The position numbers and the translations under genes were made by a program. A DNA stretch of 64,000 nucleotides. Source: Octopus vulgaris (Eukaryota). The stretch is from the NCBI GenBank assembly GCA_951406725.2, contig OX597823.1, forward strand, positions 23,436,001 through 23,500,000. The letters are read 5' to 3'. The notes beneath the pieces were generated by a model. That model searched no databases. It was not told where the DNA came from and worked only from the letters and a program-made list of their open reading frames with translations. Numbering within the stretch: position 1 is the first letter of the stretch; each line of letters opens with the position of its first letter. Shown here piece after piece: positions 1 to 24,122 of this stretch.

Positions 1-1100
1 AGGGAATTGCACCACTAATGCTATATTTCTGGTAAGACAGCTGCAGGAGAAATACCTAACCAAAAATAAACCTCTGTACCTGGCTTTCATTCACATGAAG
101 AAAGCCTTTGACAGGGTCCCCCCGATCCCTTATCTAGTGGTCAATGAGGAACCTAGGGTTAAGGCAACCTGTGGAAGCTATCCTCATCCATTCTCACCAC
201 ATCACCACAGCTATCTCTCTTTCACACCACATCTGATACTTCTATGGTCCAACTTTTCTCTCAAGGTACTTAAACTCTGTCGAGTATGCACACTGACATT
301 ACACATCCAGCGGAGCATACTGGCTTCATTCCTTGCAAGCTTACGCATGTCCTCAGCAGTCACGGTCCATGTTTCACTGCCATATGGTGGTTTAGGGAAC
401 CTGTGGATGAGGTGGTGAAGCACGACTTTCAAACATTAGGCCTCAGTGAGGCAATGACTATTGACCGAAATATGCTGTGCTTGAGAAGACCAGGCAAGCT
501 AAGTGAGACCATAACCTGTGGTCTATTCCAGGGGTTTAACCAGCCCTCTTATCTGTACCTTTCCTTCATTAGACACTAAACTTTGCTTGCAAAGACCTGT
601 TGAGGTAAGTGAAATCGAAATCGAAATCAAATTTGATGACTGGCATCTGTGCTAGTGGAGCACTAAAAGCATCATCCTAGCATGATCGTTGCCAGAGCAG
701 CTGACTGGCTTCCGTGCCAGTGGCACATAAAAAGCACCATTCAAGCATGATTGTTACCAGCGTCGCCTTACTGGCACTTGTGCCAGTGACATGTGAAAAA
801 ATATTTGAGCAAGGTCATTGCCAGTGCCGCTGGACTGGCTCCTGTGCAGGTGGCATGTAAAAAACACCATTTGAGCATGGCCGCTGCCAGTACCGCCTGA
901 CTTGCCCTCGTGCTGGTGGCACGTAAAAGCACCCACTACACTCTCGGAGTGGTTGGCGTTAAGGAAGGGCATCCAGCTGTAGAAACTCTGCCAGATCAGA
1001 TTGGGGCCTGGCGCTGCCATATGGTTCGCCAGTCTTCAGTCAAATCGTCCAACCCATGCCAGCATGGAAAGCGGACATTAAACGATGATGATGATGATGT
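1..1100. mobile_element. Rearranged RTE-clade LINE remnant (RT fragment on +, inverted piece on -, 3' end with (GAT)n tail on +)
   Basis: Bases 1-170 read ..TTNAIFLVRQLQEKYLTKNKPLYLAFI.MKKAFDRVP (non-LTR RT); ORF 211-432(-) is a LINE C-terminal region (YGSETW..EASMLRWMCNVS); 3' end aaacgatgatgatgatgatg near 1100. Confidence 0.8.
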
Positions 1101-1589
1101 TTGAAGTGTATCAAAGACTAGAGAGAGGATTTGCAATCATTCTCTGATGATTATGTAATGTTAGTGTGCATGAATAGAAGAGTAAAAACGAGCAAAGGAA
1201 AAGCTATATATAATAGAATCTAATATGATGTGAAGAAAAAAAAAAACTTCTATGGTTCAGGCATATGATGCATATAGAGAATGATTGCTATATAAGAAAT
1301 TGTCAAGTGATCAAACTGAACAAAATTTGCAGAAAAGGGAGACTGAGGAAGACTCAAGACAAAACAGAGAAGACAAAAGATGATGATAATTGGTGTTATG
1401 TAGAGCTGCAGTAACCTGATGAAATGTACATTAGAAACGGCTGTGTTGAACAATGTGTGTGGGTGTATTTATATCTCTGTGCAACTTGCTTCACTCAATA
1501 AATTTCATTGTAAACCTGTTATGTTCTCATTCTCATCCTCCTCCTAACATACTTTCACCATTAGTGTCAATTTCTGTCATCAATTCCAG

Positions 1590-1760
1590 CTTATGTGCAA
1601 GTTAAATGTGGACCTCCAAAAGATGTTGCTCTTGGCAAAAAGGCCTACACTACCACCAGATACAAATCTGAGGTGACTTATACTTGTGATGATGGAAATC
1701 AATATAAGTTGACATGTGAAAAGGACAATAAATGGAGTCCCATAACATTTTCTTGCAAAG
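1590..1760 (+). CDS. Exon S1: Sushi/CCP-like domain of the Sushi-PAN repeat protein
   Basis: ttccag|CT..AAAG|gtaacg; 171 nt, phase 1-1; YVQVKCGPPKDVALGKKAYTTTRYKSEVTYTCDDGNQYKLTCEKDNKWSPITFSCK has the CxxP..YxC..C..W..C Sushi pattern. Confidence 0.9.
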
Positions 1761-2384
1761 GTAACGTAAACAGCTTTTCTCTATTTGCCTCTGTCTATGT
1801 GACTTTTTTAAAAAAGTTTAAATTATGTGTTTTTGTCAGAAGAAAGTTGACTCTTCATATATACATCTTCTTTGCCCATTTAATGCCAGAATGGGAGAGG
1901 GGAAAGAATCCTCAAGCATACCTTTCATGAGATCCTGTCAGAAGCAACTGTCTTCTGTTAGACCCCAAGACTAGCCAAGCACATGCATGTTATCCAAGCA
2001 CCTTGCTCGTGGTTTATTCCTGGGTCTCCTGCCTGTTGGTTTTGCCTGTAAAACAAGTCTTTCCCAATACAATCTTACCACATGCCCATATTATCAGAGT
2101 TGTGATCTCTTAATTTGGAGACATTGTGGCTCCACCTGGAGTGACACACCGATTTCTGAGCTACACATTCTATCGAGTAACATTACTCCTATGTCCCTTT
2201 GGTGTAACCCCATCTTGACCACTTGTATTTGTGATCATATTGCTTCAGTCATTACCCATGAGTTATGACCACAGGTAAGGAAAGGCTTAAATACCAAATT
2301 ATTCAGCATTTGCACTTACTTCTCTTCTGATGATGATGGAATGTTGAAACTGGCACATTACTGCCCCAGCTCCTGTAATTCTTT

Positions 2385-2855
2385 CACATGCATCACAACC
2401 ACATGTGTATGACATAGTGACCTCCTATCATAAAAAAAAAAATGCATAATCTTACATGTGGAACCCAGTTAGAACTTTTTTCAGATTGACTGGCTCATCC
2501 TACTCAAAAGGTCCCTAAATAAGGTTTGTTTAAGGATGATGAACAAAACACCCATGTTTCCAGAGGCAAATTATTCAAACCCCAAAGAATTTCTTTTGAA
2601 ACATGGTTATGAAATTCCTCACAACTCCTGTTCATGGTCAGAAAAGCACATATCATCAGCCACTGAAGGACATACTCAACTGAATAAGGTCAAGCAACTG
2701 ACAAGCAAATCTGTAGTATTGAGTAGAATATTTGCAATAGCCCACCTTTTACACCAAGACAAAGCATATACATGTTAACACTTCCAATCAGTTAAGATCA
2801 GAAGCCATGAGAGCCACTGCTTGTTACTGTATCATGGCATTATTATTATTATTAC

Positions 2856-2927
<72 letters not shown>

Positions 2928-3350
2928 CATCATTTTCGTTATCGAGTGAGAGAGTAATTCATGCCATCAAGGTGATACTGGGGCACAAATATATGAAGCC
3001 CTATATACTCATCATGACTACCCATCTGATAAGGGTACATCAGGCATATGCATCACCACCACATGTGTGCAACATGGTGGTCTCATATCAAGATAACCAG
3101 TACATGACCTTGCAGTTAGAGCCCAGTTAGAATTTTTTACAGTTTGAATTGTCTTTCCCACTCAAAAGGTCACTGAACAAGGGTTGTTTAATGATGTTAA
3201 ATGAAACACCCTCTCAACACATGGCTATGATGCTTCCCCTCGACCTTTGCTCATGATCAGAGATGCACACATCTTCAGTCACTAAGAGTTAAGGTCAAGC
3301 AACTGACAAGCAAACCTGTAATATGGAGCAGAATATTTGCTGTAGACCAT
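2385..3350. mobile_element. Two copies (partial) of a ~560-bp interspersed element associated with (TTA)n tracts
   Basis: Same sequence (gagtgagagagcagtgcatgccatcaaagtg...aagatcagaagccatgagagccactgc) recurs at ~4935-5460, ~14020-14545 and ~14590-15150, flanked by TTA repeats. Confidence 0.8.
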
Positions 3351-3352
3351 TT

Positions 3353-4082
3353 ATTACCTCCGTCTTAGTGAAGGCAGAGGTATTGTTCTCAGTTTGTTTG
3401 TTTGTTCATGTTTGTTTGTCCGTGGACAATATATCTCAAGAACCACTGGATGGATTTGAATGAAAATTTCAGGGATGTTTAGCCTCATGACTGGCACAAA
3501 CTGATTAGATTTTGGGACCAATCCAGCACCATACAAGGATTCTAGATTATTTTTCATATTTTCTTTACATGTATATGTAGTTTCACATAATTCTCTTGTA
3601 CACACACACACACATGCAAACATACCTATTTTTACACACACTTCACACTTTAAACACTTTTTATTGGTTTTTTCACTCCTTCCTTTGTTATTCATACAAC
3701 ACTCTCTTTGCCATTTATCTCCTCTATTTTCACCTCTCACTCTGGCTCTATTTTATATATTTATGTATATATATATATGTGTGTGTATAAATATATATAG
3801 AAATATATAAAAAGACAATGCTCATTATTATATTAGGAGATTATACATACATTTTAAAACTTTACAGTATACTTACCTATATACATAATTCTATACATTG
3901 ATCTAAAACAACAGGGTTACTAAAGGAAGACCAGAATTTAAGAGAAGAGAAAACCAAAAGGTCTCATGATATTCATTGAATGGTTTTATTTCATATATTC
4001 TCATTTAAAAAATCATCTCCAGTTAATTGTCGAGAGGACGTTGATGTTGCATTGCCAGAGGTTTGCACTCTCTGAGTGCACT
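3353..4082 (+). mobile_element. Helentron-associated non-autonomous element (HINE/DINE-like), interrupted
   Basis: 5' ttacctccgtcttagtgaaggcagaggt and 3' ttgccagaggtttgcactctctgagtgca (subterminal repeat plus terminal hairpin); uninterrupted copy at 45845-46203. Confidence 0.6.
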
Positions 4083-4193
4083 TGTTATCATTATTATTAT
4101 TACTATTATTATTATCTTTTTTTTTTCTTCTTCTTTCAAATTTGCTTCCATTTCTTGCTGAGTGTCTTCCCAACTCCTAGGGCAAAGAAACTC

Positions 4194-4250
<57 letters not shown>

Positions 4251-4399
4251 GAATTTTTCTTTTTCTGCTGATTTTGTTTCCATTTCTTCCTCAGTACCTT
4301 ACTGGTATCTAGGGTAAAGAAACTTACTCTATATATTGAAAGGCCATTAAATAAACACAACAGATTTGTCATTTACAAAATCAAATAAAGTTAAGTAGA

Positions 4400-4900
4400 G
4401 AAAAAAGATATTTGCATGGAAGGTTATCACAGAACATTGCCCTTCTCAGTATGAGTGATGTACTGTTTAAAACAATAATTGCTCTTTCTGCAGGGATGGT
4501 AAGCCAGGGATTATTCTCAAATAATATTCAGTTTCTTTTTTGATCATTCCTAGTGCTTTTACAATCACTGGTATTTTAATTGCCTTGAGATGTCACATTT
4601 TTCTATTCCAATGAGTAAAGTTTATATTTCATGAGTTCGTCAAACTCTTTGCCACAATATAATGATCACAAGGGATACTCAAGTCAATAAACAGACTTTA
4701 TTATTTTGGTCTTTTACAACAATGTCCTGTTTATTAGCTTTGATGGTTCAGTCTGTGTATAAAGGAAAATCACCAAAGAGCATAACATATTCTCCCTCAG
4801 TTGTGTTTACAGCATTTGTCAACAGTTTTGAATTATAATGTTGACATATTAACTAGTGTAGATATTGGAAGACTCTATCATATCTTGATTTATACTCTAT
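4400..4900 (-). mobile_element. R4/Dong-like non-LTR retrotransposon, restriction-like endonuclease fragment (decayed)
   Basis: Minus strand gives a broken ..TIKANK.DIVV..CLLID..IP.D....IPVIV.ALGMIKK motif, homologous to ORF 15303-15539. Confidence 0.65.
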
Positions 4901-4934
4901 TTGTGTTAAAACTTTACCTTATTGTTATTATTAT

Positions 4935-5505
4935 TGAGTGAGAGAGCAGTGCATGCCATCAAAGTGATACTGGGGTACAAATATACAAAGTCCAATATAC
5001 CCATCATCACTACTTGTCTGACAAACATGCATCACCACCATATGTGAGTGACATGATGATCTCATATCAAGATAAACAGCACATGACTTTGCAGGTGGGT
5101 CCTAGCTAGAATTTTCTTCAGATTAAGTGGGCCATCCCACTTAAAGGGTCCCTGAATAAGGGTTATTTAATGATGTTGAATGAAACACCCATATTTCCAG
5201 AGGTGAATTATTCAAACTCCAAAGAATTCCTCTCAACACATGGCTATGATGCTCCTCCACTACTTCTGCACACATCATCAGCCACTAAGGGACACGCTCA
5301 ACTGGTTAAGGTCAAACAACTGACAATCAAATCTGTGGTATTGAGCAGAATATTTGCTGTAGCCCATGTTTTATACCAAGACAAAACATGCACATGATAA
5401 CACTTCCAATCAGTTAAGATCAGAAGCCATGAGAGCCAGCATGTGGTACTGAATCAGGTCATTTATTATTATTATCATTATTATTATCATTATTATTATT
5501 ATTTA

Positions 5506-5588
<83 letters not shown>

Positions 5589-5590
5589 TC
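4935..5590. mobile_element. ~560-bp TTA-associated element plus long (TTA)n microsatellite
   Basis: Near-full copy of the repeat described above, followed by about 130 bp of (TTA)n. Confidence 0.8.
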
Positions 5591-5789
5591 TCTTTATCAC
5601 AAGTTTTGTTGCAGCTCCTGGAGTTTTACATGTGTTGTGTATTATCATTATTAATACCTCTGCCTTAGCGAAAGTGGGGGCATTGTTTTCAGTTGCATTT
5701 GTTTGTTTGTTTGTTCATGGACAAGATATCTCAAGAACTGCTGGTTGGATTCAAATGAAATGTGATGAAGTTCACCTGTCATTTTATTC

Positions 5790-6130
5790 ATTCCTCCAGG
5801 GTGTTATTTTAGTAACTCACAAACATATTTGCACTCATGTATTTTGAGGAGTGAAAGTGTAGTAGATTCAGAACATTTTCTGAGAATGTGCACTTTCAGA
5901 TGTCCCTCAAAATTGCAGCTGCTTGATGTAAAATGTTTGGCAAATTCTGTCAAACTACTGCAATTGTGCCTAATGTCATACCTGTGCCTATTGAATCTTT
6001 TGTTCAATTGTTCTGTTGTACAGCCAACATAAATCAAGTTGTGTTTAGTGCATTCTGCTGCATACACCCAATGAGAATCTTTACATGTCTCACCTTTTGT
6101 ATAAATCATAACGTTTCTGTTATGATTCTT
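5790..6130 (-). mobile_element. GIY-YIG endonuclease fragment of a Penelope-like element
   Basis: ORF 5804-6109: TCKDSHWVYAAECTKHNLIYVGCT..LNKRFNRHRYDI..FAKHF has the VY..C....YVG.T...L..R...H signature. Confidence 0.75.
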
Positions 6131-6939
6131 GATGGATTTGACTCAACTCATGTTGTTGCACAATGAACAGGGCTAACTTCTTTTGCATCTGTTGCAGCAT
6201 TCAGAAACACCAGTTTTAGTTTTGTTGGAGTCAGTAGTAGAGGATAATATTTCTCTTATATTTTGTTGAGGGCTACTGAGTTATAGCTTAGACTTGTTCA
6301 ACCATCTGCTGCTCCATTTTTCTTTGCAATACACATATCATATGCTCTCTTATTACAAACCACTTGTACAACTATCTGTCACTCACATCTTCTCCTTGAC
6401 CACTTTAGTGTTGATGTCATCATAAAATACACTCTGTACACTCCACACTGTAAAGTGGTTGGTGTTTAGGAGGGCAGCCAGTCAAAGAAATCTTACTAAA
6501 TAAAACATACAAGTAGGAAAAGATGCATATTCATGGTTCAAGGGAATGCTACAAGTCTGAATGAGAGGTGACTGATATTGCATGAAGGGATCCAATTTGC
6601 ACTAGCAGCATAAAATGATGATAATAATACTAAAATATTTATATGCATCAACACACACACAAACATACAAGGTATGTATAGATACATATCTGAATATATG
6701 TATTCACTGTTTTACACATGCATATACGTATGTATATGTACATACATCCATATGTGTGTGCGTGTGTGTGCGTGCTTGTGTGCGCTTGTGTGTATGTGTG
6801 TGTGTGCATTCATATCACTGTGTAAATAGCTCAACTTGCTTCAGTCAGTACCTTTTATTGTAAATTTGTTACCTTCTCATTCTCACCTTCCTCCTAACAT
6901 ACATTCACCATTAGTGCTAATTTCTCTCATTAATTTCAG

Positions 6940-7104
6940 GTAAGGTTGACTGTAAAACTCCAAAAGATGTTGCTGGTGCAAAAAAGACCTACACTACAAC
7001 TACCTTAAAATCTGAAGTGATTTATACTTGTCCAAAAGGAACGAAGCTAAAATCAATATGTGGAGAGGACAATAAATGGAGTTCACTTGCATTTTCTTGC
7101 AAAG
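6940..7104 (+). CDS. Exon S2: Sushi/CCP-like domain
   Basis: tttcag|GT..AAAG|gtaaca; 165 nt, phase 1-1; KVDCKTPKDVAGAKKTYTTTTLKSEVIYTCPKGTKLKSICGEDNKWSSLAFSCK. Not present in the ORF track. Confidence 0.88.
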
Positions 7105-7319
7105 GTAACATAAACAGCTTTTCTCTATTTGTCTCTGTCTAGGTGACTTTTTAAAAAAAGTTTTACTTATGTGTTTTTGTCAGAAGAAAGTTTGCTCTTC
7201 ATACATACATCTTCTTTGCCCATTTAATGCTGGAAGGGGAGTGGGGGAAGAATCCTCAAGCATACCTTTCATGAGATCCTGTCAGAAGCAACTGTCTTCT
7301 GTTAGTCTCCAAGACCAGC

Positions 7320-8410
7320 CAAGCACAGGTATGTTATCCAAGCACCTTGCTCGTGGTTTATTCCTGGGTCTCCTGCCTGTTGGTTTTGCCTGTAAAACAA
7401 GTCTTTCCCAATACAATCTTACCACATGCCCATATTATCAGAGTTGTGATCTCTTAATTTGGAGACATTGTGGCTCTACCTGGAGTGACACACCGATTTC
7501 TGAGCTACACATTCTATCGAGTAACATTACTCCTATGTCCCTTTGGTGTAACCCCATCTTGACCACTTGTATTTGTGATCGTATTGCTTCAGTCATTACC
7601 CATGAGTTATGACCACAGGTAAGGATAGGCTTAAACACCAAATTATTCAGCATTTGCACTTACTTCTCTTCTGATGATGATGGAATGTTGAAACTGGCAC
7701 ATTACTGCCCCAGCTCCTGTAATTCTTGCACTAAATTGAGCCACTTTCTTTTAATTACTTGTGAAAACAATTCCTTGATACTTGAACTTCTCCTGCTTCA
7801 GCGAAACTTTATTTATATGTAGAGTACTTCGCGCAAGCTTCTTAAGAGAATTAGTGTCTTAATCTTTGCAGAACTGATTTTCTATCCTGCTGAGCAGCTC
7901 TCAGCAGGAAACCTCTCATGAGCTTGTCAGAGATCACCTTCTGATGAGTTGAGTCATTCAAATTTCAGCCAACTATTCCTATACCTACTGGTCTCAATTC
8001 CACTTTCAACTCAGTTGCACATGTTAGTCCTTTCCTCTATGGGTGAAGTTTGACATCCATAGAGATTTCAAGACAACAAGCTGTCCTTTATTCATTGTCC
8101 CATCCTCCTGAAGAACCTCCCACAATACGTCCTGAGTGATTTAGTCATATATAGCCTTTTCAAGGTCTACAAAGCAAACATACACCTCTTGACCATACTT
8201 CCATGATGTCTTGAAAATTTGTTGCAGTTTGCATATTTGGTTGTCTGTGCTGTATCCGTTGTGAAAAACCACACTGTTTGCCTGCCAGCATAGATTTGAC
8301 AATATCCTAACAACTCTTCATCAAACACTCAGCATAGATTCTAATGGGGGAGCTTCACAAGGAGATTCATCTATAATTAGTGCATTCTGCCTTGCCTCCC
8401 TTTTTGAAAA
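7320..8410 (-). mobile_element. Decayed RTE-type LINE RT region (first ~400 bp also present at ~1980-2385)
   Basis: ORF 7438-7659(-) FKPILTCGHNSWVMTEAIRSQIQ resembles the RTE C-terminus; the complement of FVDLEKAY.. lies near 8150-8180. Confidence 0.7.
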
Positions 8411-10178
8411 TTATTCATCTGAGGCTGAATTTTGTCTTCTCCAGGAACCTTGCCATATTTGAGCTTTGTAATTGCTCTTGTGACCAGTTTCTGAAAGGTT
8501 AGTCATCACTCCTAGATGCACCTCATATGTGTCAGAAGATGGACCAAATTTACAAAGTATTCTCTCCACCTCGTGAGGACACAACTCTTTTCCGAGAGAA
8601 GAAATCCAAATGAGTTTCTGAAAGCAGGCATGTGACCGAACGATCTGCTAAAATTCTTCATTTGCTGAACTTAGGTAGAGGGCCTGACCAGAAGCTATTC
8701 TGCAATCTCCCTCTAACATTGTCAAAACATGCAACGGGCTAACAACCTGCCCTGGGGAGTGTGGGAAGGACATACAACGGTTATGTACTTTGAGACACCC
8801 CAAAAGGTCCAAAGGATGGTGGGGAATAATTTGGCTGTGTCTACAATTCCATGACATTTATGACTGGAAGGAAGAAGTTATCCTCAGACCAGTGACCTCC
8901 TCAAATGCTTACAACAGAATATACTGCATTAAAGCTACCCAAGAATCAGGTAATACTGTTAAACTGGGTGATGAAGTAAGTCTATCACCTAAGAAATGGA
9001 AATATGGTAGCTTCCACATGGTTTCCATCTACCAGATTTAATTCTATTTTGCAAAGCAAATTTTTAACCCTGCAGCCAAAACCCAAAACAATACCATATT
9101 GTTTGGAAATGAATTTATTAACCCCACAACTATACCTGAGACCATCTTGGCAGTTTTCTTCTGAATATCTAACCTGACTTTCTCATCTGGCCTTTGTGTC
9201 ATTATTCGAAACACATACAATATAATGTACTAACTCCCTTACAGCAATTCTTTGAAACAGCTGTCCAATGCCCAAGTAATCTTCCAATTTGTCATGCTCA
9301 ATTACTAACGAGAATAATGGTTTCTGAATAGGACATAGATGTTGATGAGAAGGGTTTAGTTTATAACATCAAAACCAGCACTTGATTAGTACTTTATGTT
9401 GTCAACCCACACAAGTGTGAAACAAAAAGACTGACCATGGCTGGAAAATGAAAGCATCCAAATACTTACTGTAAAGTATTTCTTCTCTTGCTGTATTGAT
9501 TCTTCCATTCAACCATACTTAATTATAGAAATAATAAGAAGGATTAGTTTTACTTGCCACTAGGATATCAGACGGAGGTGATGGTACAAAGACAGGCAAA
9601 AAGCATGGTGGTTGACAGCGTTAAATGAATAATAAGAAACATTAGTATTTATGTATACAATTAAAATAAAGATGAGGATGATGATGCAATGCTCTTGAAT
9701 GTAGTGGGATCTGCATCTGGGGTGGTGGTGGGGGAAACTGAAAAAAACCCCACCATCCAAGATCACCCTAAAATCCAAGGGAAACTGTCCTCTCCAGTAA
9801 TTATTCTCTGACCTAAAGGCTTATGCACTACGGTCCCCATCTGCCTTTGCCATATTTGACACTTTCACCATCATTTCAATAATTTCACTTGACAGTATCT
9901 CACTCTCAATCCTCACCATTTACAAGTGAAAGGTGGAAACAACAATGCAGGATCCATGGAAAAAGAAAGTTTCTGTTATTTGATCTTTCAACCTTATCCA
10001 CCACACAACCATTTAACTATCATTATCTCGCAGTGGCAAACTACCTTCTCTGTCTGGTTAAAGGACAGTTGGGGCAATGAATGTTTGAACTTAATAATGC
10101 ATACTAACAGATCTGACACATTTTATCCGGCTGATATAATCTTTTGCCTGATTGAAATCACTAGCTGTTCCTCTAGAT

Positions 10179-10463
10179 CAGTGCTTCTCAAACTATCTGA
10201 TGTGTTGTACTGACAGTTTTTTTCCAATGTGCCAGGGACCAGTAATATTTCTTAGTTATATCAATTTATACTGGAAACAATATATATAATGAATATAATA
10301 AATATTGACAATTTTTTAAAATCTTATATTTATTTTGTAAACAAATAATATAATATTACATAAGCATTTTAAAATGTTTCTTTTTTGGAAACTGGCCACA
10401 TATCAGCAGTTGCTGGCCTGCAGACCAGCGCTGGTCCATGGACCACCACTTTGAGTAGCACTG
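10179..10463. mobile_element. hAT (Charlie-like) MITE
   Basis: Terminal inverted repeats cagtgcttctcaaa / tttgagtagcactg; 8-bp flanks ctctagat and cactaggt resemble a decayed NTCTAGAN target duplication. Confidence 0.75.
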
Positions 10464-10534
10464 CACTAGGTTGTCATGGCAATGGTGGTGGACATTACTT
10501 GGTTCATTGTTAATATATCTATTCAATAAATAAT

Positions 10535-10745
10535 CAAGCTGACAGAATCATCAGCATGCCAGATGAAATGCTTAGTGACATTTCATATAGCTTTATGTTT
10601 TGAGTTCAAATTCTGCTGAGTTAGACTTTGCTTTTCATTCTTTCTGGGATGATAAAATAAGTACCAATTGATCACTAGGGTCGATGGAATTAACTTGCCC
10701 CAGCCCCAAAATTTCTGGCCTTGTGTCAAAATGTGAAACCAATAT
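10535..10745 (+). mobile_element. tRNA-derived SINE with Deu/Nin-like core
   Basis: gctgacagaatc..tgagttcaaattc..gactttgcttttcattc..gataaaataagtacc; relatives at ~13330-13520, ~13580-13790, ~34068-34365 and ~54730-54860(-). Confidence 0.7.
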
Positions 10746-11653
10746 ACATATTACAGTAATAAACACTTGAATTGACTCACAGATGCTCAGGAAGGACATA
10801 GATCACAATAATCTTACAATTGTAGAAAGAAGGGTGGTCAGAGAATTTCATGGCATCACTGTTTCTGCTATGACTAGCTTCTTAAAAAATAAACATACCA
10901 TCTCATTGCAATTAATTACTGTATTTGTTGGTGTATAATACATGCTCTCTTCATTTTTAGATACTTCATAACATTACCCTCTGTCTAATGCCACTATGGA
11001 TAGGAGATCCAATGTTGTAGGATAAGGATCTGGATAAGCATGAGTACTTTATGCACAATAATCATTATTAATAATAAAATATTGAAAACAAACCAAAATA
11101 ACACACAAAGTTTTCAGAAACTTAGGAAAAATTGAACCCACATCAGCTCATTATACATCCTTCCTCAGGATACATAATCTACACCTGATATATGTACGAT
11201 GAAATGTACTAAATTTGTTTTCTTTTCCAACAAAATATACCTGTAAAGGTATATGGTTCAGTAGTTTGAGCACTGGGTTTACAATTGTGAAGTTATGAGT
11301 TCAATTCCCAGATTGGGCTATGTGGTGTGTTTTTGAGTAAGGCACTTTATAGGAAATCCTATGGTCATTCATGACTAAAGGAGATCTTTACCCTTTTGTA
11401 ACTGTAAAATAGAGGACTGTCTTATGTGCTGACAAACATGGTATATCTTTATTGTTTAGGTATATGGCCTAACACTATGACAGAAAATAATGTCTTTTCA
11501 AGGGCGTTAACTGTGTATGTAAAATAAACTGACTTAGACTGAAAATCACACTTAGAACATTTACTAACACCTACCTCAAATTTTTGGCCTTTTATCTTTA
11601 TTAAAAATTATTGTTGTTATATTTCACTGATCTAAATTTTACTTTAACTCTAG

Positions 11654-11890
11654 ATATACAGCTCAGCTTCGTGAAAGTAAAGAACGCCAGTCTGGATGTA
11701 CTTAAGAAAACATTGATAGATAGCAAAACCTTAACAGGAGAAGCCTGTGCAGCAAAATGCATGACTCTTAAAAGTTGTTTATCATTTGAAATATCAAAAA
11801 GTGGAAAATGTTATAAGTTAGAGGATACTGCAGCTTTCTCTAACCATATAAAGATAACCCCAAACAGAGATTACTACCAACGAGTAAAAC
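11654..11890 (+). CDS. Exon A1: PAN/Apple domain, type a
   Basis: ctctag|AT..AAAC|gtaatt; 237 nt, phase 1-1; IQLSFVKVKNASLDVLKKTLIDSKTLTGEACAAKCMTLKSCLSFEISKSGKCYKLEDTAAFSNHIKITPNRDYYQRVK has CxxxC-x5-CxSF..C..DYY (4-Cys PAN). Confidence 0.9.
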
Positions 11891-12419
11891 GTAATTATGC
11901 TTTGTATTTTATTATTGGTTTTGAAATTTATGATTTCATTTGCACTTCATAATATATAAACAACCATCTCTGGAAAGATATTAACAGTTTTGACATAAAC
12001 ATACTGTTAGTGCTTCCCATATGGCATTTGTTCACCTTAAACACTTTTGTGCATATTTTCAATTATTGTTTGATGTTTGAAAGATAAGTCTTATTATTTT
12101 TATTAAATTTTAATAGTAGTGGTGTCAGCAGCAGTAGTCCTAGTATAAACAACTTTATGATCATTTGTCCATGTTGGTATGGCTGAGACACTGCTATTGC
12201 ATCACAGCATCTTAACACTAGTTACTTTTCTTCATAATCTGGTATACAAAATAAGAGAAAAAGTAATGCCAATCAATGTAATTACGTACCTCCTGTATTT
12301 TGGCATGGTTACTATAGGTGAATATATCTTCCTATCACCAATCTTTATACTGCCTAAAGAGAGTACATTTTCTCATGTTATTAAAGTTAGTGAAGTTGTC
12401 TGCTGGGACTAAAAAAATC

Positions 12420-13200
12420 TTCTCTACTTAAAATATATACCTATTCAGAATGGTTCCATGGTATTGAGAAAAAATTGGTCAGAGAATTCACTTAGTTGTT
12501 TTTCAAGGATTTTGTTCTTTCCTATTGAAACGCTTCCTTCTTGAGACCTTGGTCTTAAGAGGAAATTCACTAGGTTTAATGATTTCAATATTACAATACT
12601 CATGAATACCAAGATATCATCACTACTGTAATGAATCTTGCTGGTTCCAAAAGAAAGTTGAGCTATTTCTCCCTATTTCTATGAGGACAGTTAACAAAGG
12701 TTGAAATCACAGACCTCACTTCAGTATTTATCCTAGGTGCTCTCAAGAAGTTTGAGTACATTCACAGTTCAGGATTATACAGAGACAACAGCATATCGAT
12801 CTCATCTAATATGAACATCCATGAACAGGTTTAGGAAGAACTTAACAGGAATCTCCAAGGAGTTTAATTTGAAATAAAGATTACAAATAATCTAACTACA
12901 TTCAGCTAATTGGACATTACTTTAGATTTGAAGTCAGATATCAGACAAGTATTAGCTCTACAGAAGGCCTAAAAGAAAGAGAATGGGAACTTTTATAGGA
13001 ATTTCAACTATGATTCCCAAGCTATATTAAGATAGTTATTACTTGACATTACTAAAATAATCTTGAATTTATCCTCAAATACAGACACTTTTGACTGCAT
13101 TTATTTATTATGCAACAAGGTGTTAGCTAGGATTTGCTTTAGCAAGAAAATAGTCTAAATAAAGTGTAAATACATTTACACAAGTTTCATGAACTGGCAC
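12420..13200 (+). mobile_element. Ancient Penelope-like RT fossil, repeated in the equivalent intron of other modules
   Basis: ggattatacagagacaac (GLYRD.), aggtttaggaagaacttaacaggaatc, ttggacattactttagatttg (LDITLDL); homologous blocks at ~25960-26950 and ~40830-41900. Confidence 0.6.
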
Positions 13201-13899
13201 TTATCAAACGTATCAAAATTGGTTAAGTACTAATGCATGAGACTTTCAGACCATGGGCCACTTTGTAACTTTTGCTGATGAAATAATATACAGGGTGGGC
13301 CAACAGTGATGCACCAAAACATTTGGAATTTTGGCAGAATTATTAGCACACCAAGTGAAATGCTTAGCAATATTTCGTCTACCACTACATTCTGAATTCA
13401 AATTCTGTCAAGATCAACTTTGCTTTCATCCTGTTGGGGTCAATGAATTAAGTACCAGTTGAACACTGGGATCAATGTAATCAGCACATCTATTCCCCTA
13501 AAATGGTTTTCCTTGTAGCAAACATCCTTTGCCCTTGTAGCAAATAAATGAAATCATTATTATTATTATTATTATTACAGAGTAAGCTGGCAGAATCATT
13601 GGGCTGATTAGCATGCTTAGCGGTATTTTGTCTGTTTCATATTCTGAGTTCAAATTCTGCTGAGGTCAACTTTGCTTTTCATCCTTTCAGGGTCGATAAA
13701 TGAAGTACTAGTGAAATACTGGGGTCAATGTAATTGACTAGTAGTCCCCTCCCCGCAAATTTCAGGCCTTGTACTTTTAGTAGAAAGGATTATTATCATT
13801 ATTTTTGTTTTTTAGTTTTTTTGTTTTTTTATCTTTTTTTTTATTTTGTGTGTCACACTTTTCTATTGTCCCCCATGTCTTGAGTCCTTGTGGCCAATA

Positions 13900-13918
13900 A
13901 AAGATATCATTATTATTA

Positions 13919-13995
<77 letters not shown>

Positions 13996-15154
13996 TTATT
14001 TTTATTGTTATTATTATTATTGAGTGAGAGAGCAGTGTATGCCATCAAAGTGACACTGGGGTAAAATATATGAAACCCAGTATACCCATCATGACTACCC
14101 GTCTGATAAGAGAACACCAGGCACATGCATCACCACCATATGTGCACAACATGGTGATCTCATATCAAGATAAACAGTGCATGATCTTGCAGGTATGGCC
14201 CAGTTAGAATTTTCTTCCTGCTCAAAAGGTCCCTGAATAAGGGTTGTTTAATGATGTTGAACGAAACACTCATGTTTCCAGAGGTGAATTACCTAAACCC
14301 CAAAGAATTCTCTCAACACATGACTATGATGCTCCCCCACTACTTCTGCTCATGATCAGAGCTGCACATATCATCAGCCATTAAGGGACATGCTCAACTG
14401 TTAAGGTCAAGCAACTGACAATCAAATCTGAGGTACTGAGCAGAATATTTGCTGATGTCCATCTTTTATACCAAGACAAAACAATGTATATAATAACACT
14501 TCTAATCAGTTAAGATCAGAAGCTATGAGAACCACTGCCTGGTTATTATTATCATTATCATTATTGTTATCATTATTATTATTATTATTATTGAGTGAGA
14601 GAGCAGTGCATGCCATTAAAGTGACACTGGGGTAAAATATACGAAGCCCAGTATACCCATCATGACTACCCGTCTGATAAGGGTACACCAGGCACATGCA
14701 TCACAACCATATGTGCGCGACATGATGATCTCATATCAAGATAAACAGCACATGACCTTGTAGGTGCGGCCCAGTTAGAATTTTCTTCTGGTCAAGTAAC
14801 CCATCCTGCTCAAAAGGTCCCTGAGTAAGGGTTGTTTAAGGATGTTGAATGAAACACCCATGTTTCCAGAGGTGAATTATTCAAACCCCAAAGAATTCCT
14901 CTCAACACATGGCTATGATACTCCCCCACTACTTCTGCTCATGATCAGAGATGCACATATCATCAGCCACTAAGGGACATGCTCAACTGGTTAAGGTCAA
15001 ACAACTGACAAGCAAATCTGAGGTATTGAGCAGAATATTTGCTGATGTCCATCTTTTATACCAAGACAAAACAATGTACATGATAACACTTCCAATCAGT
15101 TAAGATCAGAAGCCATGAGAACCACTGCCTGGTACTGCATCAGGGCATTTATTA

Positions 15155-15194
<40 letters not shown>

Positions 15195-15199
15195 CATCA

Positions 15200-15270
<71 letters not shown>
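13900..15270. mobile_element. Two tandem full copies of the ~560-bp element separated and flanked by (TTA)n
   Basis: Direct repeats ~14020-14545 and ~14590-15150 embedded in TTA tracts. Confidence 0.85.
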
Positions 15271-15563
15271 TAGTTTTATTTTTATAGCGTGCTTTCACTT
15301 CGCTACCGAGCGCAGCTCTGTGTGCCTTGGTATGTGCTGTGATTTGTTGTGATGCTCTGATGGTTATTGTATGGAAAGTGTTCTGCGTAGGATGTGTCAG
15401 TGCCTAGTAGTGCAATTTTCTGTATGTTATATGTGTTTGTAAGTCCTGGTGTTTTTGTTATGTATTTGTCTGAATATTTTTTTATCATGCCTAATGCACC
15501 TACTATGATAGGAATTGTTTCTGTTTTCAGATTCCACATTCTAGTTACCTCTATTTCCAGGTC
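15268..15563 (-). mobile_element. 5'-truncated R4/Dong-like LINE 3' end inserted in (TAA)n
   Basis: ORF 15303-15539(-): MWNLKTETIPIIVGALGMIKK..IQKIALLGT, typical of the restriction-like endonuclease C-terminus; (TTA)n on both sides. Confidence 0.8.
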
Positions 15564-15633
<70 letters not shown>

Positions 15634-16613
15634 CATTATTTAATAGATATTTTAGAATATCAGATAACTGATATTTTAAATAGTATCATAGAAAACCATC
15701 TGGTTTATTATTTAATAGATTGATAATATATTTTGAAAACATAGTCCATTTGCAAAATCACATTTCATCTAACCCATCCTTTTCTGAATTTATGTGACTT
15801 CTAGAACATCATGAGAAAGATGTAAAGCCTTTCTTCAATATTTAATTTATATATAATCCATTTGTACATCCCTCTTTATATGGTTTGTTTTTGTTTAACA
15901 TTGAATGGTTATAATACCAGTAGACATTTTGATTGACTTCCCATTTAAGGAAGTTTCAACCCTACAAAGGCATACCATTCTGATGGAGGATATACTAATG
16001 GAGTATCTGTAATCAATAGTAGGATTGGCATAAACAGGTAGACTGTATTGGGCCATATATGATGTTGTTGTTTGTTTCTTCTTTGAGTCATGCCTGGCTT
16101 ATAAGGGCTAGTTTCCTGGGTTCATTGGCGTATAAGTTCCCCACCTGGATGGGACGCTGGTCCATCACAGGTGAGCTGCTAGATGCTGGAGGAAAGAGTG
16201 AGAGAAAGAAAGAGTCAGAAGAAGTTCACCATTACCTTCTGCTGGAGCCACGTGGAGCTTAGGTGTTTCACTAATAAACACACACATCATCTGGTCTGAG
16301 ATTCGAACCCATGATCCCTCAACTGTGAGTCCACTGCTCTAACCACTAGACCATGTGCCTCCACATTGCACCAGATATAGTTTGCTTAAATACTAAAGAG
16401 TTGAGTCTCAAGATGTACTACAACTCACAAGAATGCTGATGAGGGTGTCAATTTGTAAATCAAATATTTGTTTTTAGTAAATTTTCCATTTAAAAATCAT
16501 GCACTACAAGCATTATAATATTTAATGTATGTATATGGTGTGGTGTGTATATGTATGTCTTACTGACTTTGTGTATGAGTATACAATATATTTCTTGTTT
16601 TCTTTTTTTCCAG

Positions 16614-16850
16614 CTGATGATGATGATGTTAATAGATTTAAAGCAACTTCTGTACCAAAGCAAAGTACTATTGGACGGCTTAAAGGTGTGAAATTAAAGG
16701 AATGTCTTCATGCTTGCCAACTTTATCCAGGATGCTTATCTTTTGCGTACAATGAGGATTTTACATTGTGTAATCTGAATAATGCAAGTTCCGGAACTCA
16801 AGAACTTAAACCCAATGATAAAACTTGGGATACTTACTTCATTAACCCAA
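16614..16850 (+). CDS. Exon B1: PAN/Apple domain, type b
   Basis: tttttttccag|CT..CCAA|gtcagt; 237 nt, phase 1-1; DDDDVNRFKATSVPKQSTIGRLKGVKLKECLHACQLYPGCLSFAYNEDFTLCNLNNASSGTQELKPNDKTWDTYFINP. Confidence 0.9.
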
Positions 16851-16954
16851 GTCAGTAGCATTTTCATTTTATTAATTGTATGAGCGTTTGTGTATATTTA
16901 CATATACCTATATGTGTGTACATAACAACATATGAATATATTTAAGTAACATAC

Positions 16955-17297
16955 GTTGCCTTACTGGCGCTTGTGCTGGTGGCACGTGAAAAAACATTCA
17001 AGCGAGGTCATTGCCAGTGCTGCTGGACTGGCACCTGTGCAAGTGGCACATAAAAAGCTCCATTTGAGTGTAGCATTGCCAGTACTGCCAGACTGGCCTT
17101 CATGCCGGTGGCACGTAAAAGCACCCACTACACTCTCAGAGTGGTTGGCGTTAGGAAGAGCATCCAGCTGTAGAAACTCTGCCAGATCAGATTGGAGTCT
17201 GGTGCAACCATCTGGTTCACCAGAGCTCAGTCAAATCGTCCACCCATGCTAGCCTGGAAAGTGCACGTTAAATGATGATGATGATGATGATGATGAT
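16955..17297 (+). mobile_element. RTE 3'-end-derived repeat with (GAT)n tail
   Basis: Matches ~760-1100 (aaaagcacccactacactctc..ggttggcgttaggaag..gtcaaatcgtcc..atgatgatg). Confidence 0.8.
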
Positions 17298-17308
17298 ATA
17301 TATATATA

Positions 17309-17351
<43 letters not shown>

Positions 17352-17894
17352 AGAATTTAGAGAATGTATTTGATAAAATCTAGGTTACACATGTTATATA
17401 GCTAGCAAACCTCAGAAGTTCAGCACACACACACACACACACACACATTTATACATATATATGTACACTCACACACAAACAAGAAATTACAATAAACACA
17501 AGTTGATATCATTTGTTTCTAATTATGCTTCACCACTGAATTTCTTTGGAACCTTCCATTTAATGTTTCAAGAGAAATTGGATAATCAAGTGCAACAGAT
17601 TATCGAGGACCCTGTTAATGTAACCATGATGTTCTCATGATCTGATGAGCCAACTTTTTTTGCTTTCACATAATGCTGTCACACTCCAGATTGAGCTAAA
17701 TCTTATCTACTAATTAGCAAATGAATATAATAAGAAATTCAATGAATCAAAATTTCAGGTTCTTCATTATGGAGTTGACATGCACAAAACTTATTAGACA
17801 TCAGAAAACCAATTATTGAAAGCTCAAAAAAATATACTAGACTTAGGAGTAATCATGTCAAATGCTGCATCTTTCATCAGACATCAACTTGATC

Positions 17895-18280
17895 TTTTGC
17901 TAACCAACCACATGGTTCCGGGTTCAGTCCCACTGCGTGGCATCTTGGGCAAGTGTCTTCTGCTATAGCCCTGGGCCGACCAATGCCTTGTGAGTGGATT
18001 TGGTAGACGGAAACTGAAAGAAGCCTGTCGTATATATGTATATATATATATATGTATGTTTGTGTGTCTGTGTTTGTCTCCCTAGCATTGCTTGACAACC
18101 GATGCTGGTGTGTTTACGTCCCCGTCACTTAGCGGTTCGGCAAAAGAGACCGATAGAATAAGTACTGGGCTTACAAAGAATAAGTCCCGGGGTTGATTTG
18201 CTCGACTAAAGGCGGTGCTCCAGCATGGCCTCAGTCAAATGACTGAAACAAGTAAAAGAGTAAAAGAGTAAAAGAGAGTA
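17895..18280 (+). mobile_element. tRNA-derived SINE, 5'-truncated, with internal (TA)/(TG) tract and (GAGTAAAA)n tail
   Basis: ggttccgggttcagtccc (B-box-like), ..ggcggtgctccagcatggcc..gtcaaatgactgaaacaagtaaaagag; fuller copy at ~23910-24330. Confidence 0.8.
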
Positions 18281-19760
18281 TCTTATTGGATGAAAACCTT
18301 CATAACTCAAGAACCAGTAGTTCTGCTGACTCTATGGAAAGCCTTAGTTATGAGTATACTAGCTTACTGCTCAGAGCTTTGATCTCCATATAGACCCAGT
18401 CTCATAGAAGAAATCAAAGGGTTACAGTGAACCCTCACAAGTAAGATAACTTCTGTTAAATTACTAAGGACCTCTCAAAGCTCGACATCTCTACTCCCTT
18501 GAATGATAGAGATATGTTTTTATTTATGTATGGAGGATCCTGGATGGTCATGTTCCAAACTTCAGCATTAAAGAAAACTTTAATGCCAGACCTGGTTTCC
18601 AGATATGCCACCTTCAAAATCATGAACAAGGACACTTTATTGCAATAATCTGGTATTTAGAGAGGCCCTCAAATGTTCAACAACTTACATAAAGAAATCA
18701 GAAACATAAAAGAGACTTCTACTGAAAATAATTCAAGAAATCATTGGATGAATTCCTCACCAAAATACTGAACCAGCCAGCAATACAAGGTTACACTCAA
18801 GAAAGATCAACTGCTGCTAATTCATATAGAGACCAACTTACAGCCATAAGATTTCAACAAACCTGATAAAAAGATAGTAATGTATAAAAAAAATAAATAA
18901 AAGTAAATAAAAATATGGTAGTACTCCACTATGACTACAGTCCATCAATCAAAGCCACAAAGAGAAAAAAAAAGTAGAAAAATGTATCTACAGATTGTGT
19001 TGAGTTAAAAGTTTTGCAATATTTTGGTAAATTACTTGCTTTATTCATCAAGTTACAACAAAAGTAGCCTGGCATTCAAAATGGAGGATATTGTGTTGCA
19101 CTGTCTGAAGCCACTTTTCTGCCAGTTCTTTGATTCCATGCTGATACCAGTTCCAGTCCTTTGAGGATAAGAACTCCTTCAGGGAAACTTTCACCTCTTC
19201 TTTGTTGATGAAGCCTCACAAGCACAGGAAGCGAGCCATGGATCAGAGCAATTAATAATCTAAGAGTGTGGAATCAGTTTGATTCCCACAGTTCCTAGAG
19301 TTTATCCCGAGTTGTGCCATAACAAAGATACTTTGGACCAAAAGGAGTAGCAATCCTAGTAACAAGTATGGTGTGTGATCTGGGGATTGATATGAATAAA
19401 ACCTCATTTCATGTGCATATCACCAAGCTGGTGGCAATGTGCAGGCAAATTGCCAGATGGATTCTGAGAACTTTCAAAATGAGGTACCAGAAAACTATGT
19501 TGGTTCTATGGAGGACATTTGTCTTCAGCTGTCTGGACTACTGCTCTTAACTGTGGTCACCTCACTATCAAATTAATAGTGGAACTTGAGTTAGTTCAGC
19601 TGTGCTACATGAGAAAGATTGCATCGATAGAACAGCTGAGTTACTTGGAGAGACTGAAAGAGTTGTGACTCTACTTCTTGGAGCAAAGATGAGAGCGATA
19701 CATAATGATATATGTATGAAAGGTCCTGGATGAGTTGGCATCAAATTCTCAGCATTGACT
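18280..19760 (+). mobile_element. Two decayed CR1/L2-like LINE C-terminal fragments (~18280-18840 and ~19330-19760)
   Basis: ORF 19368-19550 ..ARWILRTFK..MLVLWRTFVFSCLDYCS, and a parallel ..YCSEL.SP / GPQMFNNL stretch in the first block. Confidence 0.65.
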
Positions 19761-20309
19761 CCTAATGGACCAGGAACTTTCCATGTTTATATATCTTTAA
19801 TTGTCTTATCTGTTATACAGCTGTCAACTAGGACAACTTGTACCTCTATTGGGTTCACATAGGGGAGACACCCGTTCTCCCATTCACTCTCCACATTTAA
19901 TAGACTTTCATAGTAGCTCTTCCATACCTTTTTCTTTCAGAATCATCATTAAATGCCAAGCATACCATTATCCAGTCTGGAAATGGAAGATATAGAAGCT
20001 TGAAGACTCAGCAAATTGACAGAAATTTAGAGATATTCTAATGGAAGCCTTTAACAAGAAGAAGGACGAGTTGGAAACATAGCTTAAAGGAAAACTGGAA
20101 GTTTCTATGGGACAACCTACTGCGGGCTACAGATTAAATCTGTAACTGATGCAAAGTTGCAGCCAGGTTGAGAATGACATCACTATAAAAGCAAAGAGAT
20201 GGGCCTGGAAAGATTGGAAATATGGTGGTAGCAGAAAATTGTATCAGGTATCCCGAAGGGAAGCTAGGTGACAGGTTTACATAGTGAAAAGAAAAGCAGG
20301 AAGTAATGT

Positions 20310-21420
20310 TGTTTGGTATGCTCCACCCTTTTCACCCAATGTTAAAACTTGCATGGGAAGAATTTTCCTTAGTTTAAGGATAAACACTTCACCCAATCAC
20401 ACATAACAGACATTTGTTTAATAGGCACAACCTGAGAATCTCGTTCAGTTGTGCACCCAGCATTAAGAAAATTTTAGTGAGTACCCCTAAGCCATGAGCA
20501 GAAGCAGTATGCTCATGTATGGTGTAAAATGACAACCAAGTGGGGATTGATGTGAAGTTTAAGGTTTGAATTGGTAGCCAGCATTGACAGCCAGAGCAAC
20601 AACCTAAGCACCAATGACACTACTAACAGCAGCAATGATGACAACAATGACAGTGGTGGCAGCAGTGCCTCAAGCAGCAGAGGCAACAATACCAATGGTC
20701 ATGATGGCAATTGCAACACTGACATTGCGGCCAGGAGTGGCCTCTACACTAGCAACACATCTTCAAGAATAACAGCACTGACAGTGACTCTAGGACAGCA
20801 TCTATGGCAATAAGAACAACATCGAACCTGGAGTTTATGAAACAAACATCAGTGATGGTGGTACATCCAATACACAAACAGTTCAACTGGGCCCCCATTT
20901 ATACAATATCTGAACAACCACAGGTCTTCTATAAGGTTACAAGAAAGGCATAACATTACATCCCTACCAGTCACGTATGGCACTTAAAAGAGAAAGGAAC
21001 ATAAGTGAAAACTCTCTGAGCAGCCAGGGGCTTATATTAATGGAAGCAGGCAATGTAAGCTTTGCTTGGCAGAGAGAGCAAGAATCCCAGAAAACTTACC
21101 TGGCATGGAGACCTTTTTAAACTCCAAGAAAGAATTATGTTGTCAATGCCCACATCTAAAACATTTCTTACTACAAACTTGGAGTTCTCCCATTCATTGT
21201 GGCAGAGCTTCAAATATCACTATGGCTGGAACATTTGCATGGTGGATAACATCATCCCACCTGTAACACTTCCTGCATGGACAAATATTTTTTGTTTACA
21301 AAACTAATTGACCTCCAGTTGTAGAGAGGTTATGCACCTTTGGGCATTTGCATCTGACAAGTCGCCTATACATCTAAGCACTTTATAGGTGTGAAACCAA
21401 TGGTCACTCTCTGACTGGTC
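20310..21420 (+). mobile_element. Decayed Penelope-like element 3' half
   Basis: NVVWYAPPFSPNVKT at ~20305, HVWHLKEK, CKLCLAE, FLNSKKELCCQCPHLKHFLL (GIY-YIG C-terminus); ends at a (TA)n tract. Confidence 0.7.
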
Positions 21421-21438
21421 ATAGCCATTAACTTACTA

Positions 21439-21476
<38 letters not shown>

Positions 21477-21563
21477 GAAGGTTGAAAAGGAGCACACAAG
21501 TTGATATATATGGAAAAAAATGTCAAGATAGAAAATGCTAAAATAATCTTATAAAAAACATTT

Positions 21564-21599
21564 CAGTACCGATTTCAGTCATTGAGACTTTTTCAACTG
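21564..21599 (-). ncRNA. Minimal type I hammerhead ribozyme motif (U3/A8 variant)
   Basis: Minus strand: CAG TTGAAAA AGTC tcaat GACT GAAA TCGG TA CTG = stem I, core, stem II, GAAA, near-palindromic stem III, GUA site. Confidence 0.6.
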
Positions 21600-21745
21600 T
21601 AAGTATGGAAAACAATTAAATTTGGAAAAATTAAAAGAATATTTGTATAGTGTTCAAATACAAGTGGTATTTTCCTTGTTTCTGTCTGTCTCTGTCTCTC
21701 TTGTTTTCTCTTGTGGGTTTGAGGTCATTGTAAATTCTTGGTAGG

Positions 21746-21873
21746 GAAGAAGAAGAAAAAGAAGAAGAAGAAGAAGAAGAAGAAGAAGAAGAAGAAGAAG
21801 AAGAAGAAGAAGAAGAAGAAGAAGAAGAAGAAGAAGAAGAAGAAGAAGAAGAAGAAGAAGAAGAAGAAGAAGA
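21746..21873. repeat. (GAA)n microsatellite, ~128 bp
   Basis: Read directly from the sequence. Confidence 0.97.
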
Positions 21874-23510: not shown

Positions 23511-23550
23511 CATGTATAGACATATATATATGTTTTCATGAAATATATAT

Positions 23551-23900: not shown

Positions 23901-23909
23901 TACACATAT

Positions 23910-24073
23910 AGGCGCAGGAGTGGTTGTGTGGTAAGTAGCTTGCTAACCAACCACAGGGTTCCGGGTTCAGTTCCCCTGCATGGCACCTTAGGCAAGTGTC
24001 ATCTACTATAGCCTCAGGCCAACCAAAACCCTGTGAGTGGGTTTGGTAGATAGAAACTGAAAGAAGCCTGTTG

Positions 24074-24122
<49 letters not shown>

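Follow-up and report, generated by a model that had tools for sequence, protein, structure and literature searches.

Probable gene conversion behind an exon–intron contrast in a predicted giant PAN/Sushi gene of Octopus vulgaris

Three described systems help to place the locus treated here, a stretch of Octopus vulgaris DNA in which two neighbouring Sushi exons, S1 and S2, differ strongly while the intron downstream of them is nearly the same in both copies. In humans, the paralogues for red and green opsins undergo interlocus gene conversion and show a peak of divergence in an exon, where selection is thought to stop the conversion (PMC3924837). The Drosophila protein Dumpy is a 2.5 MDa extracellular protein made of EGF-DPY-EGF units arranged in a six-unit super-repeat and encoded by 78 coding exons (PMC10895422). 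Larger still are PKZILLA-1, with 45,212 amino acids and 4.7 MDa, and PKZILLA-2, with 3.2 MDa, both backed by transcript and peptide support (10.1101/2024.01.29.577497).

The stretch, referred to as the window, comprises 64,000 nucleotides (C10:23,436,001-23,500,000 of genome G000), and coordinates for S1 and S2 are window positions. The contrast between these exons and their intron is most likely the product of recent gene conversion of the intron, a known process, inside a 1.64 Mb array of 343 intact exons that is predicted to be one secreted-protein gene. The gene that would surround S1 and S2 has gone unrecognised and is a candidate for a place among the largest secreted proteins.

The S1/S2 exon pair and its downstream intron

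The first-pass annotation of the window had described S1 and S2 as duplicated exons that diverged far more than their flanking introns, and had read positive selection from the contrast, with gene conversion of the downstream intron as its alternative. The elements concerned are the following.

1480..1589, + strand: upstream intron and acceptor of S1, 17% different from 6830-6939
1590..1760, + strand: Sushi exon S1 (array index 15), phase 1-1, 171 nucleotides (nt), PF00084 at E=8e-7
6940..7104, + strand: Sushi exon S2 (array index 16), 165 nt, phase 1-1, placed beside S1 as its sister in the exon tree
1746..2387, no strand: homogenised tract, S1 copy, made of the last 15 exon bases, a proximal layer at 1761-1990 (~8%) and a distal layer at 1991-2380 (~1%)
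7090..7731, no strand: homogenised tract, S2 copy
1855..2385, no strand: old dispersed-repeat relic inside the tract, with 67-76% matches on other chromosomes

The counts behind the earlier description are reproduced exactly: from the first cysteine (1607 in S1, 6951 in S2) to the exon end, 39 of 154 nt differ, with 20 of the 51 codons changing the amino acid and 4 differing only silently. These 20:4 counts do not yield a ratio of nonsynonymous to synonymous substitution rates (dN/dS) above 1. The wider claim holds on one side of the exon: divergence exceeds that of the downstream intron (25% vs 8% in its proximal part, p=8e-6) but not significantly that of the upstream 110 nt, 19 of which differ (17%, p=0.13). 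Likewise, the downstream intron is a few percent different as a whole (24 differences in 621 columns between 1761-2380 and 7105-7725, namely 23 substitutions and one end gap) but not uniformly, because it is stepped, with 19 differences in 230 positions (8.3%) at 1761-1990 and 4 in 390 (1%) at 1991-2380 (p=7e-6). Divergence along the pair thus runs from 17% upstream through 25% in the exon to 8% and 1%. The last exon difference lies at 1745, and identity begins 15 bases within the exon.

The age of the tract can be judged against organism E, another octopod represented by runs X14 and X15 from two studies. Its contig over 1480-1809 has 29 differences in 330 nt to the S1 region and is far closer to it than S2 is, so S1 has its own counterpart in that species. 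Its tract contig, over 1861-2387, shows 46-47 differences in 527 nt (~9%) and 11 gap positions, and S1 and S2 differ from each other at 14 positions within 1861-2380. Since the tract is closer within the genome than to organism E, where the S1 exon is already distinct, the exchange of sequence postdates the split from E and the separation of the exons predates it. The E exon also differs at 1751, 1752 and 1756, where S1 equals S2 (among the 40 of 100 differences listed), and the tract therefore takes in the last codons of the exon. Conversion as the mechanism is deduced from these two ages, a tract younger than the species split beside an exon that is older; the sequences make it likely that the downstream intron was homogenised by gene conversion after the split from E. 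The alternative offered in the first-pass annotation is thereby the one that gains support, from a stepped tract younger than the split, and the pattern that it had named as speaking against its selection reading, a conversion tract beginning at the exon 3' end together with a low dN/dS, is what the pair displays.

Regarding selection on the pair itself, Nei–Gojobori counting (NG86) gives dN 0.283, dS 0.416 and dN/dS 0.68, with 2 of 11 fourfold sites differing; pairwise maximum likelihood (ML) gives 0.53 with a 95% confidence interval (CI) of 0.22-1.26, and a branch model on both the S1 and S2 terminal branches gives 0.58. None of the three methods places dN/dS between S1 and S2 above 1, and the pair is without detectable positive selection; this, with the discrete tract at the exon 3' end, removes the ground for reading selection from the contrast. 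The exon distance of 0.265 is close to the median of 0.274 over 8,911 Sushi pairs in the locus, and S1 ranks only 24th among the exons nearest S2. In the exon tree the two are sisters with support 0.92, partly via their shared 3' end, and the relic in their introns occurs within the array only at S1, S2 and one 68% piece. Being sisters and the sole Sushi exons that share this relic, which may be LINE-like (long interspersed nuclear element), they point to an old tandem duplication. S1 and S2 would then be tandem duplicates of old origin and unremarkable divergence, and gene conversion would afterwards have homogenised their downstream intron.

A predicted 1.64 Mb gene around the pair

Of 75 matches to a sequence pattern, 72 fall on a single strand of the same chromosome, between 23.38 and 24.95 Mb. 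Scanning of 23.246-25.020 Mb, a region without N, returned 348 domain matches, all on the + strand and in the order PAN-A, PAN-B and one or more Sushi, abbreviated ABS(S). Three of them make up a short one-unit gene at 23.27-23.29 Mb, and the other 345 form one array of 343 intact exons and 2 fragments. The intact exons (133 Sushi, 105 PAN-A and 105 PAN-B) fall into 105 units, of which 73 are ABS, 27 ABSS, 3 AB and 2 ABSSS. AG/GT ends are found in 343 of 343 exons; 342 have frames that are open directly, and exon B140 has one after its acceptor is re-set (201 bases).

At 23,362,495, which is 2.2 kb before the first array exon, stands the one paralogue (71.6%, E=1e-12) of the signal-peptide exon of the short gene, and no further one was found inside the array by a search that detects only paralogues of the known exon. 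At the other end, 25,003,050, is a four-exon GON domain, which occurs nowhere else in the array. An architecture of signal peptide, PAN-PAN-Sushi units and C-terminal GON is thus present among the genomic exons, whose joining is predicted. The domain exons total 72,306 bases, and the full-length product with both ends would have ~24,300 amino acids, ~2.7 MDa and a net charge of ~+1,060.

We hold with good confidence that the array is one transcription unit, and consider it somewhat better than an even chance that a nearly full-length product is among its isoforms, in which case most exons would be spliced in order into one message. In its strongest form the proposal is finely balanced: octopuses may use a 1.64 Mb gene to make one secreted chain of ~24,300 residues (2.7 MDa; 343 PAN/Sushi domains plus GON), larger than Dumpy and possibly the largest extracellular chain described, in which mild positive selection keeps 210 PAN heads diverse and patchwork conversion shuffles them into a built-in library of binding specificities. 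If this is true, the question becomes how a chain with ~1,400 cysteines is made from a 73 kb message and secreted. Moreover, the 343 paralogous exons would form a natural experiment for measuring conversion, block duplication and selection side by side.

Besides S1 and S2, the window holds the following.

1..64000, + strand: whole window, internal to the predicted giant gene G000:C10:23,362,495-25,003,050
11654..11890, + strand: PAN-A exon
16614..16850, + strand: PAN-B exon
24571..24741, + strand: Sushi exon S3
25444..25683, + strand: PAN-A exon
35013..35246, + strand: PAN-B exon
36822..36992, + strand: Sushi exon S4
40078..40317, + strand: PAN-A exon
43678..43908, + strand: PAN-B exon
48111..48281, + strand: Sushi exon S5
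51824..51994, + strand: Sushi exon S6
57115..57351, + strand: PAN-A exon

Together these 13 exons have symmetric phase 1, are without stops and are arranged as S,S,A,B,S,A,B,S,A,B,S,S,A, which confirms the six Sushi and seven PAN exons annotated before. All seven PAN exons pass the gathering cut-off of PF00024 (PAN_1); three of the six Sushi exons pass that of PF00084, and the remaining ones score 19.6-20.6 bits against 20.7. The Sushi residues C6, Y30, C32, C42, W48 and C55 are invariant in 67 of 67 aligned exons.

Two other repeats were seen in the window. An inverted repeat at 27855-30707 has 1.2 kb arms (27855-29032 vs 30707-29527) of 92.8% identity, with a degenerate simple-repeat core and flanking TA runs, and is either a fold-back element or an assembly artefact; an intronic direct duplication of 134 bases (98.5% identity) joins 47053-47186 and 47608-47741. 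Elsewhere in the array, the two partial exon copies (G000:C10:24,195,920 and 24,207,827; L122, L123) have neither an open frame nor an acceptor, the first sharing 98% identity across 123 bases with the PAN-A exon that comes next, and both are absent from the O. bimaculoides model.

Public records contain the array in pieces. The models are fragments of 279-4,087 amino acids whose breaks fall at differing exons; those named O. vulgaris have the same sequence as the array exons, and those of O. sinensis are 92-100% identical at most domains. The array is collinear in Octopus bimaculoides: 160 domains of 8 records, 7 of them named O. bimaculoides, match 150 distinct exons with a median of 84%, and keep the array's order outside blocks of recent duplication. 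Among 1.84 billion representatives searched, 9 matched at E<=1e-30, 8 of which are these octopus records; an Argonauta protein with PAN-A/PAN-B-like domains is more distant, and a search with a window PAN-B exon found no longer protein. Atlas matches to molluscan PAN/Sushi/GON clusters at 0.89-0.90 are a lead only. For the models labelled SVEP1/polydom, precomputed Pfam lists show PAN and Sushi, and families of the vWA, EGF and pentraxin kinds are absent from them. The literature searched yielded no paper on the locus, which subscription papers and supplements may mention, and a word search in PMC7656900 and PMC12607849 returned no relevant passage.

Two further loci carry GON domains.

G000:C10:23,269,851-23,294,199 (L036-L038): short one-unit paralogue, orthologue of GON-Abd-1 / LOC106874924
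G000:C1:49.327-49.334 Mb (L033-L035): third GON-domain locus, on another chromosome, presumably a gene of the ADAMTS9/GON-1 type

Conversion, selection and the competing accounts

An account modelled on the opsins would have conversion pass through the intron and selection halt it at the exon edge, keeping adjacent Sushi domains distinct. It agrees with tracts that start 15 (S1/S2) and ~9 (S11/S12) bases inside the exon 3' end, and with most of the 31 adjacent Sushi pairs being 20-38% apart. The S11/S12 pair, 15 kb upstream (L051:1501-2250, L051:5847-6600), is in fact cleaner than S1/S2, with 33% difference in the exon, 28% upstream and 0% in the first 110 intron bases, and with ~560 intron bases near 98% identical beginning ~9 bases within the exon; S282/S287 has the same one-sided pattern as S1/S2. 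Among 19,936 same-type exon pairs, however, those young in the exon only (12) or in the exon and one flank (21) are as common as those young in one flank only (13). Two adjacent pairs, S42/S43 (0.10) and S338/S339 (0.14), have close exons, and high exon divergence can stop a tract by itself. Conversion along the array is a patchwork with no bias against exons, and since it does not avoid them array-wide, selection of the opsin type against conversion is not supported here; we regard this account as unlikely. The general idea that exons resist conversion was dropped on the same pair counts.

At longer range, the PAN-A exons A155 and A173 (G000:C10:24,168,167 and 24,248,704), 80 kb from each other, are 3% apart with flanks ~30% apart, which would represent long-distance conversion confined to the exon. 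Best hits lie most often at offsets of 13 exons (78 exons), 26 (30) and 39 (24), a super-repeat of four units. Duplication of 13-exon blocks would, with conversion, reshuffle the binding heads.

Less probable still is a cassette library, in which one promoter and one GON end would serve many short isoforms like the 465-amino-acid neighbour, with exon skipping picking one or a few PAN-PAN-Sushi units per message. Every exon is symmetric in phase 1 and skippable in frame, the neighbouring paralogue is a one-unit protein, and a high dN/dS would suit a diversified receptor set. Yet the exon types are interleaved within each unit and not grouped by type as in Dscam arrays, the units are irregular in composition, and public models, possibly ab initio, chain consecutive exons up to 4,087 amino acids. 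RefSeq and GenBank annotate several loci in three Octopus species, which would make the array a cluster of distinct genes; this appears very unlikely: the models start and end at different exons between species and span each other's breaks, the 11 N-termini inspected have no signal-like start, and there is just one signal exon and one GON set.

The first-pass reading, in which S1 and S2 were duplicated recently (intron ~1-4% apart) and strong positive selection drove the exon apart, is largely refuted for this pair and highly improbable. It could claim the exon–proximal intron contrast given above, the sister relation and a repeat insertion shared by no other Sushi exon, 6 of the 20 changed codons at sites with a posterior of at least 0.95 for dN/dS>1, and S1 differences to organism E that are mostly replacements (among the 40 of 100 listed). 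The pair ratio of 0.53-0.68 speaks against it, as do silent and upstream-intron divergence (17-30%) far above that of the tract, an S1 already separate in a species ~9% away, and the behaviour of young pairs elsewhere in the array.

These young pairs, 62 in number, were chosen by their neighbouring exons; 58 have at least 150 aligned intron bases, and 4 were dropped from the intron comparison. A tree-free count gives a proportion of nonsynonymous differences (pN) of 0.107 (958/8963), of synonymous differences (pS) of 0.107 (334/3103) and an intron value of 0.108 (3483/32348). Exons change at the intron rate, no faster, and pN is above the intron value in 22 of 58. An earlier finding of faster exons in 15 of 17 pairs, picked on low flank distance, was rejected as ascertainment and replaced by this selection of pairs. 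The best single candidate for positive selection is S42/S43 (L060:2262-2432, L060:5712-5882), which the recent-duplication account could also cite, with 15 replacement differences and 1 silent one in the exon, 2 differences in 170 upstream bases, and a dN/dS of 5.5 (CI 1.02-33).

A weaker form of selection is plausible for the array as a whole. The codon analyses leave out exon B140 and the two fragments, and the codon likelihood used reproduces the IQ-TREE M0 value. One-ratio dN/dS is 0.72 for Sushi, 0.76 for PAN-A and 0.77 for PAN-B; the statistics for M2a over M1a are 138, 261 and 131, respectively, with a class at 2.1-2.7 on 11-26% of sites, and that for M8 over M8a is 92 for Sushi. The Sushi statistic drops to 36 once splice-proximal codons are trimmed, Muse–Gaut (MG) frequencies are used and rates may vary. 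Under a neutral null of three discordant trees, 6 replicates gave 2.9-51.9, 5 of them above the nominal threshold; the site tests are thus inflated by recombination, though none of the six reaches 138. When 171 exons outside the young-pair blocks serve to define the site classes, cross-validated pN is 0.043 in the conserved third and 0.154 in the variable third, against a pS of 0.120 at the same codons (p=0.009); 112 of the 456 differing codons in the variable third have more than one base changed, which could be due to conversion from older donors. From the codon site models and this count, an array-wide fraction of sites with dN/dS of ~1.3-2 is plausible, and mild diversifying selection at the level of sites is rather likely across the array.

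Finally, the probability is negligible that the near-identical intron arose as an artefact of assembly, through polishing of one copy over the other. Although near-identical repeats 5 kb apart may be mis-polished and the S1 contig of run X1 carries the S2 allele (2282), 23 sites distinguish the copies, and the independent run X3 has a depth of 78.5 on the tract contig vs 47.4 on the S1 exon contig (~1.7-fold), as expected from two collapsed copies.

Several points weigh against the interpretation preferred here, that of an old duplication with later intron conversion inside one giant gene. The S1 terminal branch is the 4th longest of 134 and the sisters have good support (0.92), which leaves some acceleration on the S1 branch possible, and the interval for the S1/S2 ratio extends above 1, to 1.26. 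The comparison with organism E draws on the 40 of 100 differences listed, and one contig, at single-copy depth, covers its distal tract; beside it, as a check on homogenisation in a second lineage, stands run X8, where a contig of S1 type carries S2 alleles at 1962 and 1972. As to the gene, RefSeq and GenBank models divide the array among separate loci in three Octopus species, none of the homologous protein records extends over the window's own exons, and 31 generic signal-peptide candidates lie inside the array, mostly simple repeats, chance-like and not individually excluded. The giant chain is a prediction with exon junctions read from genomic sequence, and its proposed function comes from domain analogy. 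Three runs presumed to be RNA show repeats alone and no exon joints over 1400-17000, a result that says nothing about expression. Whatever the fate of the giant chain, the S1/S2 case is a caution against taking an exon that is faster than its intron as a sign of selection.

Likely function and comparison with known systems

The S1 model is a small beta domain whose top Foldseek rows are complement control protein (CCP) proteins, none at E<=0.001. In the one-unit paralogue, modelled with low overall confidence (predicted local distance difference test, pLDDT, 58), the PAN pair has fold matches to the apple domains of factor XI, prekallikrein, SML-2 and MIC4 and to the HGF N domain (E 6e-7 to 2e-2), and a search of solved structures gave just weak collagen C-propeptide matches near the GON start. 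By analogy, the product may be a long, strongly basic extracellular filament for multivalent binding, in which paired PAN domains form heads that bind glycans or proteins and Sushi domains act as spacers, a view to which we give even weight for and against. It would present ~210 binding heads, as an agglutinin of mucus, gland secretion or matrix; relaxed constraint and mild diversifying selection on a minority of sites would keep the heads different, while conversion and block duplication reshuffle them.

At the scale of the exon pair, the red/green opsins resemble S1/S2 in introns homogenised after speciation, a divergent exon and grouping by orthologue. They differ in that S1 and S2 are exons of one predicted gene, with a one-sided tract, in an array where conversion does not avoid exons.

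At the scale of the domain, the match to the PAN/apple adhesins and lectins (factor XI/prekallikrein, Sarcocystis SML-2, Toxoplasma MIC4 and the HGF N domain) is one of fold, with a tandem PAN pair in common, and comes from the low-confidence model; the octopus PAN domains have four cysteines each and no protease domain. The nearest relative in composition is GON-Abd-1 (UniRef R4G2C1, Abdopus aculeatus; LOC106874924 / LOC115215708), which has a signal peptide, PAN-A, PAN-B, Sushi and GON as the array does, but one unit (465 amino acids) against 105, with GON domains ~60% identical. The short gene orthologous to it sits 70 kb upstream of the array and is 81-84% identical per domain. GON-Abd-1 would stem from a venom-gland transcriptome, for which no passage in print was found, and it is not known to have an activity.

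At the scale of the whole protein, titin and the PKZILLAs share with the predicted octopus protein the megadalton class and a genomic structure owing to which annotation missed them; they are intracellular and larger, and the octopus chain is predicted here from genomic exons. Dumpy is likewise a giant extracellular chain with a three-module unit and a higher-order repeat (13 exons here), whereas the array has PAN-PAN-Sushi units with one domain per exon, 343 coding exons against 78, and a predicted 2.7 MDa. Unlike Dumpy, it has a GON end, no membrane anchor seen and a dN/dS near 0.75. By this analogy, Dumpy is the closest architectural parallel to the predicted giant protein, and, if the prediction is true, a megadalton secreted protein cut up by three annotations would join Dumpy, titin and the PKZILLAs.

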